From the UHGV virus genome UHGV-0302543: a DNA stretch of 23,700 nt; one strand, given 5' to 3'. Made by a program: the position numbers and the translations under genes. Source of the stretch: a virus. Below the pieces are notes generated by a model, which was not told where the DNA came from, did no database searches, and worked only from the letters and a program-made list of their open reading frames with translations. Shown here in pieces: positions 2,511 to 21,800 of the stretch. Positions within the stretch are counted from its first letter, which is position 1. Every line of letters begins with the position of its first letter.

Positions 2511-3852
2511 TGATCACCTCCACGCTGCGGCCACCCGGAACAAAAACCGGATCGGGGATGTTGTTTCTGCGGACAAAATACTGCCAGCGGCGGCTGTTGC
2601 CGGTGGCACGGTACAGCGTGACCAGTGCCGGTTCGGTGGTTCGCACCATGACCTGAAAAGCACCGGGAAGATGAACACTCCGCGTGGTTAAATCTTCTGT
2701 CAGTGCAAGCCCTGCATCACGTAATGCAAGGGCGGTGCCGGTATGGCCCTGTGCGGACAGATCCAGTACCTGTTGTTCCATGGCATCACTCAAATCCCGG
2801 TTGATACGCTGCACATCGGCAGAACTTTCCAGCCAGGCCAGTCCACCCGCACGGTCAGTATCCTGAACGTGCGTTGTATTCTGCCGGATGACCTGATCCA
2901 GCAGTTTCCCGACCGTCTGCGCCTGCGACACCAGGGTTGCACTCTGCATGACGCTCCGCAGCAGACGGATATTTTTCTGTGCCGCAGGCGTCAGACCAAT
3001 CAGGCGCTGCGGATCATCCTGTTCGCTGAGGGTGTAACGCAGGGAAGAAAGTGTGCGGTACAGCTGCGGCATTGCCTGCTCTGTCATGCTGTCACGGTTT
3101 GTGGTCAGGCTGCCGGACGGCCTTCCTGTCTTCCCGGTCAGTGACAGGGAAGGATTGCCGGGCAGTCCGGTCAGCACAGCAAATATTCCGGCCAGAGATT
3201 CAGCCATGCGACGGGGCGCATTAATCAGGGCGGCGGCATTGCCTTTCAGGGCGGTAAAACTGGCCGTAAAGGCACTGACATCCTGCACAATCCCCATCCC
3301 TGAAACGGCATTCTCCAGCGCATCAATCTTATCGCTGATGGTGTCGGTCATGGCCTGTACATCATGCAGACCGTCTGAAATCACCGTCCAGCCGTCTGAA
3401 AGCGTGTTAAACAGCTGATTCATTGCTGAACCGCTTTTCTGCTCCAGCGCAGCTGCCGTATCTTCTGCCACCGAAGGGGCGGTATCGTCAATGGCGGGGA
3501 TCACGTTGATCGTGAACTCAACCGTTCCCTGCTCGCTGGCGTTATAACGGCTTTCAAAGCTGTTTATCAGCACGTTTAACGTGCCGTAATCCGGGTGCAT
3601 CAGTTCACCGGCACCGGGTGCACGCAGCGCATCACGCAGGCGGCTTCGCTGTGTCTGAAGATCGTCTCCGGTCACCAGAACCGTGAATGTGAACTCCGGG
3701 AGTTTTGGCCCCAGATCATCCGCACCGCCGCTTTCACGCAGTGGGTATTCACGGCGCACAATGTTACGTCCGCCCCGTTCCCGCTGCTCCTGATAAACCA
3801 GGAACGGTACGCCACGAAAGGAGCCACGCCCCGGCGTGTCAGTAGAGGCCAT
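2494..3852 (-). CDS. DNA circularization protein (Mu gp43 / P-like)
   Basis: 452 aa directly downstream of the tape measure gene; size, position and composition consistent with Mu gpP family. Confidence 0.65.
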   Translation of the reverse strand: MASTDTPGRGSFRGVPFLVYQEQRERGGRNIVRREYPLRESGGADDLGPKLPEFTFTVLVTGDDLQTQRSRLRDALRAPGAGELMHPDYGTLNVLINSFESRYNASEQGTVEFTINVIPAIDDTAPSVAEDTAAALEQKSGSAMNQLFNTLSDGWTVISDGLHDVQAMTDTISDKIDALENAVSGMGIVQDVSAFTASFTALKGNAAALINAPRRMAESLAGIFAVLTGLPGNPSLSLTGKTGRPSGSLTTNRDSMTEQAMPQLYRTLSSLRYTLSEQDDPQRLIGLTPAAQKNIRLLRSVMQSATLVSQAQTVGKLLDQVIRQNTTHVQDTDRAGGLAWLESSADVQRINRDLSDAMEQQVLDLSAQGHTGTALALRDAGLALTEDLTTRSVHLPGAFQVMVRTTEPALVTLYRATGNSRRWQYFVRRNNIPDPVFVPGGRSVEVISEQQD

Positions 3853-4642
3853 AGTTCCCTCCGTTCCAGACGTTCACATCCAGGCCATGCTGTGCGGTAT
3901 CATCCACATCAATACTGCGCGCCCGCCAGCCTTCAGGGGCCACAAGCTCTACCCGTGCGGCGGTTTTCGCGGTGGCCTGTCCGCCGTTTTCGTCACTGCT
4001 GCCACGCAGTTTCTGCCAGGCCTGCGTCAGCCAGCCCCCCAGATAATCACCGAGATAGCTGCCCACTGTGGAACCAATGGCAACCCCGACCGGACCGGCA
4101 GCCGCCCCCAGCGCGCCACCGGCGATACTTCCGGCAAGGGAACCCACGGCACCGGCTTTATCGGCTGCACTGGCGCTACTGTCCAGCAGTACAGGAGCCG
4201 CCATGGCACCGGCCCACAGGGCACCCCCACCCAGCCGACCGGCACCACGGAACAGCCCGGCAAAACGCCCCAGCCCCATGCGGTTTCCGGCCGCCGTTAC
4301 CAGACCACCGGCACGGCTCATCATACGACCGAAGAAGCCCTGTTTACCGGCGCTCTCCGCCAGCTGCTCACCGGCGGTCACGACGGTCGTGACACCCCGC
4401 CCGCGTCCGGGGCCGCGTTTTTTACGGCCGCGCACGGTTTTGCCGTCACCGCTGACCACCACATCCCCGCCGCCTGAGGCCAGGCCACCCGCAGGCCAGT
4501 TGGTGACCAGCACGGGCTGAACGGCAGCAGGATTTACCCCGGTAAGGAAATTCAGGAAGCGGCCAGCGCGTCCGGGCTGCGTTCCCGGCACAGTGGTCTG
4601 CGGTTTGCGGAAGGGCGACGTCAGCACGGAGGTCATCGCCAC
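3839..4642 (-). CDS. tail tape measure protein, C-terminal part (Gly-rich), separated from the N-terminal part by an inverted segment
   Basis: 267 aa; GTG start lies inside the left inverted-repeat copy; Gly/Ala-rich segment typical of tape measure C-termini. Confidence 0.7.
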   Translation of the reverse strand: MAMTSVLTSPFRKPQTTVPGTQPGRAGRFLNFLTGVNPAAVQPVLVTNWPAGGLASGGGDVVVSGDGKTVRGRKKRGPGRGRGVTTVVTAGEQLAESAGKQGFFGRMMSRAGGLVTAAGNRMGLGRFAGLFRGAGRLGGGALWAGAMAAPVLLDSSASAADKAGAVGSLAGSIAGGALGAAAGPVGVAIGSTVGSYLGDYLGGWLTQAWQKLRGSSDENGGQATAKTAARVELVAPEGWRARSIDVDDTAQHGLDVNVWNGGNYGLY

Positions 4643-4671
4643 AGTCTGAAAAAGAGCCTGAAAGGCTTCCT
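4625..4671. repeat. left repeat block in tape measure gene: 16-bp unit cacggaggtcatcgcc followed by 31-bp unit acagtctgaaaaagagcctgaaaggcttcct
   Basis: Exact reverse complements of both units occur at 4990..5036. Confidence 0.85.
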
Positions 4672-4989
4672 GGATTATGCTGATGCGGCACAGAAAAGCG
4701 GCTTACAGGATAAGCTGGCCACACAGACGGCCTCGGCCCTGAATCAGGGATTCGAGTATGCCAGAGACGCTGCAACCGGCTTTTACCGTGCCATTCAGAA
4801 AGTCAGGGAAACGCTTCAGGCACTGCGCGACGCCGGTTATGGCGATGCACTGGATCGTATTGGTCAGGGGGCGCAGACCGCCGCAAAATACCTGATGTAT
4901 ATGTATCTCGCCTCCCGCGCGCTGAAGGTGCTCAGGTTTGCGGGGGCGGGAGCATTACGTCTCGGCGCAACCCCCTTACGCTATAGTAT
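4672..4989 (+). other. inverted internal segment of the tape measure gene (coding sense on plus strand)
   Basis: Plus frame reads DYADAAQKSGLQDKLATQTASALNQGFEYARDAATGFYRAIQKVRETLQALRDAGYGDALDRIGQGAQTAAKYLMYMYLASRALKVLRFAGAGALRLGATPLRYS, helical and tape-measure-like, in frame with both flanking minus-strand parts once reverse-complemented. Confidence 0.75.
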
Positions 4990-5943
4990 GGCGATGACCT
5001 CCGTGAGGAAGCCTTTCAGGCTCTTTTTCAGACTGTCAAACGGTCCCTTTGCCATCACTTCACGGGCAAACTGATCCCAGACGTCGCCCATCATGGACGT
5101 CATTCCCGTCCAGGAATTCATGGCGTTTTTCTGGGCACCTTTTGCCTGTTCGGCCATCACCTGAAATAACAGGCGAATGCTGTCCGGCCCCAGTTTTCCT
5201 TTTTCGCCTTTCTCACGGATGAGCTTCTGGTTTACGCCCAGCTTATCGGCCAGTAACTGGTAAACGTTAATCCCGTATCCGGTCAGAATATTGGCGTCCG
5301 CTGCCTGGATACTCTGGCGGGCAAACATCTGTTTGAGTTGCAGGGACGCACCCTGTGCATCTGACAGTGACCAGCCGTGATAGCCGCCCTGATCCTGAAG
5401 CATGGTAATAAAGCGACGGGCTTCCCTGTCACTCATGCCAAACCCGCGACTGGAGGCGTATTCCTGCATAACCCCCGCCAGCCCCCAGGTGGTGTCTTTG
5501 GCGTTCTGTACTGCCCAGGCTTTCACTGCTTCCGTTTTTGCCTTATCGCCATGATTAATGGCGTTGAGACGCAGAATATAGTTCTCCATCTCTGCGGCCG
5601 GGCGGATAAAGGCTTTATTAAAACCGTAGACCGCAGCCCCTCCCGCCAGCATCCCGTAAAGGTTGCTTATCCGCCCGATGGTGCCGGTAATGCTGCCCTG
5701 CAGGCGGTCAAAATCTGACGTTACCGTGCGGATGCTGCCACGAACACCGGCAAGCGTTCGCTGCATACGGGAGCCGACAAGTTCTGTTTCCTGACCGGCC
5801 CGGCGGGCTGCATTTCCAAGACCACCCAGGCCTGTCCTGCCGGAACGGGAGAACGCCCCCAGCTCCTGTGACCACTGGCGGGATTTGGCGGAAATATTGC
5901 CGAGTAAATCGACAATCAGGGAGGCTTTCAGGTTTTTTGCCAT
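4981..5943 (-). CDS. tail tape measure protein, N-terminal part, truncated by TAG at 4981 just inside the inverted segment
   Basis: 320 aa, helical composition, immediately downstream of the chaperone gene. Confidence 0.7.
   Translation of the reverse strand: MAKNLKASLIVDLLGNISAKSRQWSQELGAFSRSGRTGLGGLGNAARRAGQETELVGSRMQRTLAGVRGSIRTVTSDFDRLQGSITGTIGRISNLYGMLAGGAAVYGFNKAFIRPAAEMENYILRLNAINHGDKAKTEAVKAWAVQNAKDTTWGLAGVMQEYASSRGFGMSDREARRFITMLQDQGGYHGWSLSDAQGASLQLKQMFARQSIQAADANILTGYGINVYQLLADKLGVNQKLIREKGEKGKLGPDSIRLLFQVMAEQAKGAQKNAMNSWTGMTSMMGDVWDQFAREVMAKGPFDSLKKSLKGFLTEVIAIL
4990..5036. repeat. right repeat block: ggcgatgacctccgtg followed by aggaagcctttcaggctctttttcagactgt
   Basis: Perfect reverse complements of the two left units, each inverted in place with order preserved. 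Confidence 0.85.
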
Positions 5944-8701: not shown

Positions 8702-8726
8702 GACCGCCGTTGTCGTGTTCCCCGGC
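8702..8726. repeat. left copy of a perfect 25-bp inverted repeat (gaccgccgttgtcgtgttccccggc)
   Basis: Exact reverse complement at about 9058..9082; coordinates +/-1. Confidence 0.85.
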
Positions 8727-9088
8727 TGGTCAGTCACTGGGTGTTCTACGTCATCGGCGACATGCTCAACGGGCGTGAGGCCAGCCGTCCCGGACTGTAT
8801 CAGATTGTGGCCCGGCTGATTGCCGTGCTTAACGGCTTCAGAACAGAAAAAACCTCACCGCTTTACTTTGAAAAGGCGGTCAACGGTTACACCGAAACCC
8901 AGGCGAACAGTGGGGCCGTGATGTATGCGCTTTATTTCTCCTGCGAGGAAATGATCGCGCCACTGACGGATATCAGCTCGCTGGACGACTTCCTGCGTCA
9001 TTACGAAACCTTTGTGGAGCCGCCCGGTACGCCGCCGTTTGAGGCACATATTGATTTGCCGGGGAACACGACAACGGCGGTCCGTTAA
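8727..9088 (+). pseudogene. body of the gp37-like head gene in inverted orientation (sense on plus strand)
   Basis: Plus frame reads VSHWVFYVIGDMLNGREASRPGLYQIVARLIAVLNGFRTEKTSPLYFEKAVNGYTETQANSGAVMYALYFSCEEMIAPLTDISSLDDFLRHYETFVEPPGTPPFEAHIDLPGNTTTAVR*; every flanking gene is minus-strand. Confidence 0.75.
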
Positions 9089-12758: not shown

Positions 12759-12880
12759 ATTGCCTCCGTGAAACTACCTGGTTAAAATAAAAGCAGGTCG
12801 GTGTACTCTTAACTGGTAAAGCGGCGCCTGATGGTTTTTTCCTGAGGGATGTTTATGCGGGTTCGACCCCCGCCACCGAC
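12759..12880 (-). other. structured intergenic region between F and G (nested stem-loops followed by a T-run on the minus strand)
   Basis: 9-bp long-range complement aggtcggtg / caccgacct encloses the hairpin gcggg-ttcgacc-cccgc; minus strand continues CTGCTTTTATTTT. Confidence 0.3.
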
Positions 12881-20077: not shown

Positions 20078-20500
20078 TCAGAAAAGTGGCGGTTGCGTTC
20101 TTGCCAGATGCAGACGGCGCTGTTCGCGTATGACGGTATAAATCTGGGTTTCTGACATCCTGTAATGGCGGCGCAGGGTTTCAATTTTTTCGCCCTGGCT
20201 CCAGCGGGAAAAAATCTCATTATTGCGCAGTTCGGTGAAAAGGGATTCACCGACCGGGAGATAATAACCACGCCCGCCCATGTACCCGGCCTGTGCGGCC
20301 GCAACTTTACGGGCAAGCATTCCTGCCTGAGCAGGTTCAATCCCCTGACGGTGCAGTTCAGCACTGATCACATCAACCAGGTCCCGCAGCGTGCCGGGCC
20401 AGTTCTTTTTCAGCTCATCATCAGGAATGTCATCCAGACGGTCAATCAGCGCGTGCAGCTGTTCGCTGTCACCAAACATGCTCATCTGTGTTTCAGCCAT
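20078..20500 (-). CDS. mor: Mor/C-family transcriptional activator of middle/late genes
   Basis: 140 aa; C-terminal HTH region TLRRHYRMSETQIYTVIREQ typical of the Mor family; located between gemA-like and lysis genes. Confidence 0.8.
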   Translation of the reverse strand: MAETQMSMFGDSEQLHALIDRLDDIPDDELKKNWPGTLRDLVDVISAELHRQGIEPAQAGMLARKVAAAQAGYMGGRGYYLPVGESLFTELRNNEIFSRWSQGEKIETLRRHYRMSETQIYTVIREQRRLHLARTQPPLF

Positions 20501-20527
20501 ACCCGCCTCCGGTCATCATTACACAGG

Positions 20528-20566
20528 GCAAGTTTAAAATAAAAATCCCGCGCTGTGGCGGGATTT
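20528..20566 (-). terminator. rho-independent terminator (minus strand) immediately upstream of mor; equivalent position to the Mu early terminator
   Basis: 9-bp stem aaatcccgc/gcgggattt with 6-nt loop; on the minus strand followed by TTTTTATTTTAAA. Confidence 0.6.
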
Positions 20567-20840
20567 AGAGGCGCTGTAAATCATAACCCGAAATGAGCTG
20601 TGTATTTATTGATCATTTTCCGGTGTAACTATATGATAAAGATCGTTTTTATTTTTAAAAATACAAACCCTGAAGGAGTTTTTCTTATCAAAAAGCTTGT
20701 GCATATTGCGGGTTATTGTTGTTTCATCAACATGAAAACCAATTATCCCAACTCTTAAAGCACACCAGGCTTGCTCCAGTGCAAAAACAAATAATTTCAG
20801 TCTGCCTGACAGCGTTCCACCGGAATAAAGGAAGATATCC

Positions 20841-21101
20841 ATGAAACAACCTCCATCTTTGCTTTTATCGTGCCCACCAGAACTGGCCCATGAACTCAAT
20901 GATCTGGCGAAAGAGTATAAACTTACAAATCATAATATAGAAGCAGCAACACTTAGTGCTGCCGGAAGCGATATTGTATTGATCGTTCTGGCCGCAGCTT
21001 CATGCGATGGGTTCTGGCAGGCATTAGCCAGTATGTTTCAGACGTGGTTACATCGTAAACCAACAAAACAAACACCCCCCGGAAAAGAAAGTTATTCGTA
21101 G
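20841..21101 (+). CDS. hypothetical protein of AT-rich moron, upstream part (ORF split at a C6 tract; +1 frame continues to the stop at 21262-21264)
   Basis: AAGGAAG RBS 7 nt upstream of the ATG; plus-strand orientation opposite to the phage genes; low-GC codon usage; the +1 frame reads ...VIRSVIVRSWEHYQETTKQTEFYNFDADELAKLIALYEKPDETIGCIIPSETEIQEK with no start codon of its own. Confidence 0.5.
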   Translation: MKQPPSLLLSCPPELAHELNDLAKEYKLTNHNIEAATLSAAGSDIVLIVLAAASCDGFWQALASMFQTWLHRKPTKQTPPGKESYS

Positions 21102-21249
21102 CGTCATTGTTCGTAGCTGGGAACACTATCAGGAGACAACTAAACAAACTGAATTTTATAACTTTGATGCTGATGAGCTGGCTAAATTGATAGCGTTATA
21201 TGAAAAACCAGATGAAACAATTGGTTGCATAATCCCGTCAGAAACGGAA

Positions 21250-21287
21250 ATTCAGGAAAAATAAAATCCCGCACTGTGGCGGGATTT
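21250..21287. terminator. second copy of the terminator hairpin (aaatcccgc-actgtg-gcgggattt), directly after the gemA-like stop on the minus strand and after the moron ORF on the plus strand
   Basis: Same stem as at 20543..20566 with one loop difference; A-run on one side and T-run on the other, so potentially bidirectional. Confidence 0.6.
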
Positions 21288-21290
21288 GGG

Positions 21291-21800
21291 TTAACAGGGG
21301 AATGATTTTTCATACAGCCTGCAAACGCGCTCATAACTCATCACTGCACGCTCCGACATATCCAGGGCTGCCAGCATTTTGCGGCGGTGCCAGCGTTTGA
21401 GACGCTCCAGCACATCAGAGGCCAGCTCGGGGTGTTGCTCCAGCCACTGCCAGTTAGCCACACCTTCGCCGCCGTTCTGCGTGGCCGTCTGCGATTTCAC
21501 CCAGCGGTTAAGGGCCGTTTCCGCACCATCAGAAATAAAGCCCTGCCGGTGCATCACTTTCCAGATGGCGCGAATTTTGGCGGTCACCGTACCCGGCTTT
21601 AAGGCCCGGTTAACCGGTTTCTGACGCACTTTAAAACCGCGTTTTTTGAAAACATCCAGTACGCGGGATAACTCATCCGGTGACATATCCCGGCAACTGG
21701 CTTTACCGGTGGCTGCCAGCAGTGCGGATGTATAGGTTTCATCATCCAGAGCAAGCTCGCGTTTTGCCACATGAATGGCAGATATCAGTTTTCCTCTCAT
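21291..21800 (-). CDS. gemA: GemA-like protein (Mu gp16 family)
   Basis: 169 aa starting MRGKLISAIHVAKRELALDDETYTSALLAATGKASCRDMSPDELSRVLDVFKKRGF, matching the conserved GemA/gp16 N-terminal pattern. Confidence 0.75.
   Translation of the reverse strand: MRGKLISAIHVAKRELALDDETYTSALLAATGKASCRDMSPDELSRVLDVFKKRGFKVRQKPVNRALKPGTVTAKIRAIWKVMHRQGFISDGAETALNRWVKSQTATQNGGEGVANWQWLEQHPELASDVLERLKRWHRRKMLAALDMSERAVMSYERVCRLYEKSFPC

Follow-up and report, generated by a model that had tools for sequence, protein, structure and literature searches.

What is an AT-rich island, with a gene read against the surrounding phage genes and a hairpin repeated at either end, doing between the genes gemA and mor of a Mu-like prophage? 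The question is raised by positions 20,528 to 21,290 of the virus genome UHGV-0302543 (UHGV), analysed here as a stretch of 23,700 nucleotides (nt) that is referred to as the window in what follows, and in which the phage genes are read on the minus strand. A first-pass annotation, made from the letters alone, had proposed a moron at this place, i.e., an accessory cargo unit, together with a plus-strand cargo gene of unfamiliar sequence. The comparisons presented here agree with that proposal and extend it: from its architecture and from the logic of its expression, the interval is quite probably a lysogen-expressed accessory cassette seated at the gemA-mor terminator, the role of which would be of the conflict type. 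The features on which the argument relies are collected in Table 1.

In the first instance, the island stands apart from its surroundings by composition. The mor-gemA interval is 790 base pairs (bp) long with an overall GC content of about 41%, and when taken over 200 nt at a time its GC fraction lies between 0.32 and 0.45 against 0.55-0.60 in the flanks, which makes it the lowest-GC part of the 23.7-kb window. The two hairpins with a minus-strand T-run that bracket it, namely AAATCCCGCGCTGTGGCGGGATTT on the left and AAATCCCGCACTGTGGCGGGATTT on the right, are identical at 23 of 24 positions and both lie inside a direct repeat of 31 nt with 90% identity. With stems of 9 bp, T-rich tails and folding energies of -13.2 to -15.2 kcal/mol (z-scores of -2.0 to -3.4), both score as intrinsic terminators of the minus strand. 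The left hairpin lies 40 nt past the stop of a small minus-strand open reading frame (ORF) and 33 nt ahead of the mor start; the right one begins at the stop codon of the plus-strand ORF, 3 nt from the gemA stop, and was scored by the terminator scan on the minus strand only. The island, the hairpin pair and the opposite-oriented gene with its own ribosome-binding site AAGGAAG and downstream hairpin are thus all as the first-pass annotation had described them.

Presence and absence of this island among relatives were appraised by megablast of positions 20450-21350 against 5,426 complete Escherichia coli genomes, 33 of which exhibit this mor/gemA junction. The same island occurs in four of the 5,426, with a single base as the sole difference from the window over 901 bp. 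A different insert, 714 bp long, is present at the same junction in the E. coli strains M1 and M3. At least 24 of the 33 genomes span the junction in only 177-181 bp, and a side-by-side reading of an empty E. coli site gives a spacer of 70 bp with one hairpin, identical to the left hairpin of the window. Such empty sites, with a spacer of 68-84 bp (789-791 bp in the island carriers) and a single hairpin, were met in at least 24 complete E. coli genomes, in about 30 contigs of IMG/VR and in Citrobacter braakii; IMG/VR also holds two contigs with the window-type island and two with the M3-type insert. Both insert types start directly after the empty-site hairpin and finish with the second hairpin copy. 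Since related prophages exhibit either a short single-hairpin spacer or another cargo, the interval is accessory and not core, which supports the moron reading, and it would correspond to a horizontally acquired cassette. As for the terminator duplicated around an insertion in the first-pass annotation, the duplication stands, but insertion and deletion between the repeats are indistinguishable for any single genome.

The same junction proves to receive other cargos in more distant prophages. The M3 type, hereafter the sister cassette, resides there in E. coli M1 and M3 as well as in Salmonella prophages, and cargo is found at the junction in seven of nine loci of Mu-like prophages with GemA about 64% identical to that of the window, namely proteins of 106 and 143 amino acids (aa), each with a signal peptide, and the Salmonella version of the M3-type cassette. 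The 106-aa family occupies the same position in a phage with only 50% GemA identity and a different terminator; altogether, the signal-peptide cargos are on the plus strand in Mu-like phages whose GemA is 50-65% identical. In these distant loci the gemA-side hairpin is intact, the mor-side copy being partial or degenerate. Cassette type is uncoupled from the phage background, the window type adjoining GemA proteins of 99% as well as 88-90% identity and a different cassette adjoining a GemA 99.4% identical to the window's. All fetched loci of the cassette are in the mor-gemA setting and it was never found outside; tblastn of both ORFs returned nothing from GenBank phages, tblastn of the plus ORF nothing from plasmid records, and metagenomes scanned with the alignment of the sister family gave no match. 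As such, the mor-gemA terminator is a recurrent cargo slot of enterobacterial Mu-like prophages, with at least four unrelated cargo types.

Some further observations concern the slot itself. Every relative, as far out as a GemA identity of about 64%, has a strong intrinsic terminator of the minus strand immediately ahead of mor (for an empty site, e.g., L003:1594-1617), and in the relatives as in the window the gap between terminator and mor is too short for a promoter. Read-through and antitermination are the two candidate ways in which mor might then be transcribed. The idea that the hairpin marks the end of a mobile element or a site of recombination was rejected: its pattern, searched in 185,579 species genomes, returned one Mu-like prophage, the empty site of Citrobacter braakii, and six unrelated generic terminators with different loop bases. 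The repeated hairpin is an ordinary terminator. In one relative (L026, same contig as L090), an insertion sequence (IS) of the IS4 family, encoding a transposase of 445 aa, resides inside the hairpin loop with an 11-bp target duplication, CGCGCTGTGGC. Just inside the left junction, about 25-45 nt past the left hairpin remnant, a short motif CCGAAATG (CCAAAATG in L055) recurs in the window (20588-20595) and in the intervals of L047, L049 and L055, with otherwise unrelated cargos, and may have been left by an ancestral junction that they shared. A gene of the DUF2513 family, on the plus strand and thus opposite to the phage genes, sits just upstream of gemA in some relatives (L003:2199-2609 and L060:3945-4355), a site that is likely a second moron slot, empty in the window.

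A unit of this kind is expected to bring its own expression signals. When the window-, M3- and Salmonella-type islands are aligned, one well-conserved DNA block appears, reading TATTGATC..T......T.TAA....ATGATAA..ATC; an nhmmer profile of three sister islands matches the window at this block only (E-value 2.3e-7), and the pattern is limited to this cassette family in viral and metagenome collections. The block contains a 9/12 match to the promoter consensus (20609-20637), which is the only plus-strand promoter-like site of the island according to a promoter scan, and would thus constitute the cassette's own sigma-70-like promoter. The promoter-like sequence announced ahead of the gene by the first-pass annotation is therefore present, although its best candidate is located about 200 nt upstream of the ATG. 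Two GATC (Dam) sites, one in the -35 hexamer (20610-20613) and one just past the -10 hexamer (20641-20644), are both kept in Salmonella-type cassettes, only the first being kept in the M3 type, and methylation-dependent control through these sites is possible. The deduced leader folds ordinarily (z-score -1.0) and Rfam gave only sub-threshold noise, for which reasons a riboswitch or structured-RNA reading was dropped. Regarding the orientation, the E. coli STEC2018-607 prophage, as annotated, has only two protein genes on the plus strand, namely the repressor-position gene and the cargo gene.

The protein encoded on the plus strand is 140 aa long in its intact form (WP_001536796.1 in L001; net charge -6), as read in the four E. 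coli genomes, rather than the roughly 137 aa given earlier for a frame-corrected product. Its relatives are restricted to near-identical E. coli and Shigella sequences, both among 5.8 billion clustered proteins and in an exhaustive phmmer search of 1.84 billion representatives. The corresponding M3/Salmonella protein (111-113 aa) forms a small family of its own, always located between mor and gemA. The two align collinearly with 22-24% identity; hhalign between them gives E-values of 0.015-0.028 (0.015-0.05 across the proteins of both cassette types), shuffle tests reach a z-score of 6.25 with 0-2 of 2,000 shuffles attaining the score, and the first three predicted helices coincide in position in the low-confidence models available. 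With the shuffle statistics in support, the two families are taken as probably homologous and fast-evolving. Net charge ranges from -2 to -8 across cassettes, and the ratio of non-synonymous to synonymous substitution rates (dN/dS) of the plus ORF from 0.16 to 0.31, the upper value being that between alleles; the ORF is thus conserved within an interval that is not part of the phage core.

In the window, this gene does not have its full length. What sets the window apart from the four complete E. coli genomes is one C more in a run of C residues, where intact alleles read C5 or CCTCC. The intact ORF was found on 524 contigs and the exact 86-aa product on 27, i.e., the intact form is about 20 times as frequent; the 86-aa product is indexed in 45 blocks of the collection. 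A sequencing error was rejected as the cause, for assemblies and read sets independent of one another contain the allele. Phase variation at the C-run was likewise rejected, given that the frameshift copies all have one and the same cassette and that CCTCC stands in other intact alleles. Because a cassette identical to that of the window is found in six fetched loci, taken from independent assemblies and read sets at NCBI, and in a contig from a metagenome, and because the flanks have diverged in two of the frameshift-allele loci, the frameshift is a real, inherited and circulating allele. Two other forms of the gene are damaged differently: in L069:212-1385 an IS5-family element (DDE_Tnp_1/DUF772 transposase) stands in place of the 5' part and leaves a fusion ORF of 55 aa, and the P0002 allele (115 aa, on a 667-bp ENA contig) exhibits a clean in-frame deletion of 25 aa between two TKQT repeats, which brings its length near that of the sister family.

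It may then be asked whether the window merely holds a decaying remnant, i.e., a pseudogene within an island devoid of current function and kept through slow erosion of the prophage. The loss of the C-terminal 60 residues, the other damaged alleles and the rarity of the cassette (four of 5,426 complete E. coli genomes) would all be in keeping with decay, but the cassette of the frameshift allele exhibits no further mutations, even though it resides on prophages with diverged flanks and in many independent samples. Moreover, it is the portion alignable with the sister family that survives in the 80 residues retained, neither the promoter nor the small ORF is damaged, and intact alleles largely prevail, so that decay appears somewhat unlikely as an account of the island.

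Beneath the plus leader, head-to-head with the plus gene, the minus strand carries a second ORF that was absent from the earlier reading and is added here. It is preceded by a GGAGG located 7 nt upstream (complement of 20850-20854), and its start codon overlaps the plus-strand ATG (CCATGA), the two overlapping or abutting in other cassettes too. Its frame is the only one open across the leader in all five of the five cassette variants, with 63-64 aa outside the window type. Strong purifying selection is indicated by dN/dS values of 0.07-0.12 for the M3 and Salmonella cassettes, where substitutions accumulate at third codon positions (7/3/19, 20/7/40 and 23/10/39 for positions 1/2/3; p from 8e-4 to 4e-6), so the small ORF is clearly coding in sister cassettes. 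The window-type ORF, the length of which has a p of about 0.03, shares position and hydropathy profile with these equivalents and is probably a real gene. The deduced protein has a central hydrophobic stretch with charged residues within it (maximum Kyte-Doolittle hydropathy over 19 residues of 1.5-1.9) and a net charge of +2 in the window and +7 to +8 in the sister cassettes.

Such features evoke a toxin-antitoxin or abortive-infection module resembling type I systems, a more specific form of the conflict cassette favoured here, in which the small ORF would encode a membrane-active toxin, the plus transcript, with a leader complementary to the full toxin ORF and to its ribosome-binding site, would act as antisense antitoxin and the acidic plus protein would be a second partner. 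With 63-78 aa, a positive N-terminus, a hydrophobic stretch of about 20 residues, a charged tail and, in the sisters, both a strongly basic character and strong purifying selection, the small protein would suit the part; the conserved promoter lies at or just past the small ORF stop, so that plus RNA would cover the entire ORF, the two start codons overlap, and the small ORF is intact in an allele without full-length plus protein, as would fit an antidote sufficing at the RNA level. The case is nonetheless weakened at several points, since the small protein resembles no known type I toxin family or any other, since its hydropathy is marginal for a helix within the membrane and charged residues fall inside the supposed helix, and since the window-type protein is barely basic, with no demonstrable homology to the well-supported ones. 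Besides, the candidate toxin has no convincing promoter and a long protein-coding mRNA is unusual as a type I antitoxin. For the toxin families considered (Hok, Ldr, Ibs, TisB, ShoB, Zor, DinQ, Fst, TxpA and others), Pfam and NCBIfam gave no match up to an E-value of 10, and a profile search of 5.8 billion proteins returned only the cassette's own four clusters. All in all, a module of this type is unlikely.

A still less likely and speculative possibility is that the cassette forms a conflict module of two components that has no described precedent. Its coding mRNA would at the same time be the antisense antidote to a small membrane toxin, encoded head-to-head with overlapping start codons, and the whole would operate as an either/or switch. 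If true, a bistable choice would be made between an acidic protein expressed by the lysogen and a basic protein of the lytic strand, with prophage addiction, abortive infection or superinfection exclusion as outcomes, and the mor-gemA terminator would be a dedicated docking site for conflict modules in enterobacterial Mu-like phages.

Two other accounts remain to be weighed, both of them very improbable. The first holds that the island is ancestral, a core or accessory region lost from the empty sites by deletion between the hairpin repeats: the flanking direct repeats of 24-31 bp would allow a precise deletion leaving one hairpin, and the cassette family is old (plus proteins 22-24% identical between types, with GemA neighbours only 64-69% identical to the window's), but low GC, opposite strand, unrelated cargos and even IS elements at the same junction, cassette types uncoupled from gemA/mor phylogeny and a majority of empty relatives in every sampled lineage except the 64%-GemA group all speak otherwise, and the element would still be accessory even if single empty sites were deletions. 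The second regards the island as mainly a regulatory insert, whose convergent promoter and second terminator would lower early read-through into mor, so that the lytic cascade would start later and lysogeny would be more stable, the ORFs being secondary; the strong terminator that all relatives have directly upstream of mor is doubled by the island, which adds a convergent promoter that is the most conserved part of the cassette, but a pure regulatory spacer leaves the purifying selection on both sister-cassette ORFs unexplained, and other cargos of the slot encode secreted proteins with short leaders.

The favoured reading of a lysogen-expressed conflict cassette can then be set out as follows. 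Transcription of the plus unit would take place in the repressed prophage, on the strand of the repressor-position gene and apart from the lytic cascade, and the two terminators would insulate early transcription from that of the cassette. Mutual suppression of the two partners would be expected, for the small ORF is complementary over its entire length to the plus mRNA, and the ribosome-binding regions of both genes overlap in a span of about 26 nt. The product would most likely have a conflict role in the service of the lysogen or the prophage (exclusion, defence or addiction) and not a part in the development of the phage. In the window copy, the plus protein would be shortened or inactive because the 1-bp insertion cuts the gene to 86 aa; promoter, leader and small ORF are intact.

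Several observations weigh against this reading and temper the confidence placed in it. The plus gene has been damaged repeatedly, by frameshift, IS5-family insertion and 25-aa deletion, and it is therefore dispensable in at least some hosts. Matches of promoter quality are no commoner in the region than in shuffles (2 found for 2.3 expected), the small ORF has no good minus-strand promoter (best candidates 8/12), and the right hairpin, which folds at -14.3 kcal/mol on the plus strand, is followed there by TTT only and would be a weak terminator for the cargo gene. Only three of six variable sites of the window-type small ORF fall at codon position 3, and its homology to the sister small ORFs could not be demonstrated at the protein level. 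Both ORFs of both cassette types found no usable match in Pfam, NCBIfam, PHROGs, PADLOC or the PDB: the best E-values were 0.035 for PHROGs and 0.031 for Pfam, the latter below the gathering score, PADLOC gave no hits, and PDB profile searches were empty or at E-values of 1 and above. Lastly, the AlphaFold2 models are too poor to help, their predicted local distance difference test score (pLDDT) being 47 when built on the single window-type sequence and 44 when built on three sequences of the sister family; the failure of Foldseek to find a match at an E-value of 0.001 or below, obtained on the low-confidence window-type model, was disregarded. The absence of any recognisable motif in the plus protein, already remarked from the letters alone, thus extends to profile searches, those of the PDB included, and both cassette proteins are orphans that do not belong to a described toxin, defence or anti-defence family.

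The interest of the locus goes beyond one prophage. Accessory slots of temperate phages have repeatedly yielded genes for defence, anti-defence and host conversion, and the gemA-mor slot supplies a short list of small orphan genes as candidates for phage exclusion or toxicity; a head-to-head gene pair coupled in antisense would also be a compact regulatory design. For annotation purposes, the plus gene of the window is a circulating frameshifted allele, the small ORF on the opposite strand is probably real, and the hairpin is a plain terminator.

Table 1. Features of the mor-gemA interval and of its boundary genes, numbered as in the window
Feature	Position	Strand	Remarks
mor (Mor/C-family transcription activator)	20078..20500	minus	Pfam PF08765 Mor, E 1e-30; left boundary gene
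Left terminator hairpin and A-run (minus-strand T-tail)	20533..20566	minus	Stem-loop 20543-20566, loop base G; terminator scan, folding
Conserved promoter block	20594..20657	plus	TTGATC (20609-20614), TATGAT (20632-20637), 17-nt spacer; two GATC sites
Small ORF	20606..20842	minus	78 aa (MDIFLYSGG...); ORF list; RefSeq WP_024192020.1
Deduced leader of plus mRNA, about 200 nt	20644..20840	plus	Position deduced from promoter block; would be fully antisense to small ORF
Shine-Dalgarno-like AAGGAAG	20829..20835	plus	5 nt ahead of ATG at 20841; read from sequence
Plus cargo ORF as read in the window	20841..21101	plus	86 aa = 80 native residues + GKESYS; truncated by frameshift
C6 run, site of 1-bp insertion	21075..21080	plus	Intact alleles C5 or CCTCC
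C-terminal 60 codons of intact protein (EKKVIRS...EIQEK)	21082..21264	plus	Out of frame here; stop 21262-21264
Right terminator hairpin	21257..21287	minus T-tail	Stem-loop 21264-21287, loop base A; terminator scan, folding
gemA (gp16 family)	21291..21800	minus	Pfam PF06252 GemA, E 6e-30; right boundary gene

RefSeq gives the name 'Mor transcription activator family protein' to a product 100% identical to the Mor of the window, and the gene order is of the Mu type, with Gam, a MuB-like ATPase, the Mu transposase, lysozyme, portal and gpT head genes in neighbouring loci. Elsewhere, three segments of 284-365 bp (149-432, 4641-5005 and 8726-9082) are reversed relative to the near-identical STEC2018-607 prophage within collinear flanks; a stretch of 16-31 nt is duplicated in inverted orientation at the borders of the last two, and the segment 4641-5005 interrupts the tape-measure gene, of which the ORFs 3839-4642 and 4981-5943 are left. 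Local inversion by template switching, or else an artefact of assembly, could account for such segments. RefSeq places a plus-strand 'tRNA-OTHER' in STEC2018-607 (L070:13861-13948, about 12800-12880 in the window) between virion-morphogenesis and head-morphogenesis genes; ARAGORN found no tRNA anywhere in the window. As the end of the STEC2018-607 prophage adjoins a truncated PilZ-domain gene upstream of bcsB (L070:32001-33104), this Mu-like element appears inserted into the cellulose synthase gene bcsA.

How does the cassette compare with known systems? Type I toxin-antitoxin loci with fully overlapping antisense RNAs, such as Ibs/Sib in E. coli and TxpA/RatA in a Bacillus prophage, are commonly located in prophages. 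The cassette resembles them by its prophage setting and, going by its geometry, would also have a gene for a small hydrophobic protein under an opposite-strand transcript; on the other side, no homology was found, its antisense RNA would be the leader of a coding mRNA, and its small protein is longer than most type I toxins.

The concept of the moron stems from lambdoid phages (Juhala/Hendrix, as summarised in PMC4378225), where it designates a small accessory unit with its own promoter and terminator. As in lambdoid morons (PMC4378225), the unit lies between genes that are adjacent in relatives, deviates in base composition and has an orientation fit for prophage expression. In contrast to them, its host is a Mu-like transposable prophage, it occupies a terminator that was already there and is found afterwards in two copies, a second ORF overlapped in antisense is probably part of it, and its promoter would be about 200 nt from the gene. 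At the level of sequence, position, a putative promoter of its own and composition are those of a moron, and it is the orientation that argues for expression from the prophage. Closer to the present host, Pseudomonas Mu-like phages possess regions of genomic plasticity, with GemA and Mor as the adjacent core ORFs 13 and 14 (PMC4378225). These regions share with the gemA-mor slot fixed positions between core genes, a content of zero to few variable, low-GC and mostly orphan ORFs, and the lack of a recognisable recombinase target (PMC4378225); the gemA-mor slot differs in being defined by a conserved terminator hairpin kept on both sides of the cargo.

In functional terms, the nearest analogy would be the exclusion gene pair of the Pseudomonas transposable phage Fc02, in which olg1 and olg2 overlap gene 10 in antisense and both strands encode superinfection exclusion, as shown experimentally (PMC9936078). 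The Fc02 genes are located beside the repressor and ner, whereas the cassette is located between gemA and mor, and no sequence similarity was found between the two. What they would have in common is a Mu-type temperate phage in which small genes expressed by the lysogen, as the orientation of the cassette suggests for the present case, lie antisense to a small gene of the lytic strand (PMC9936078).

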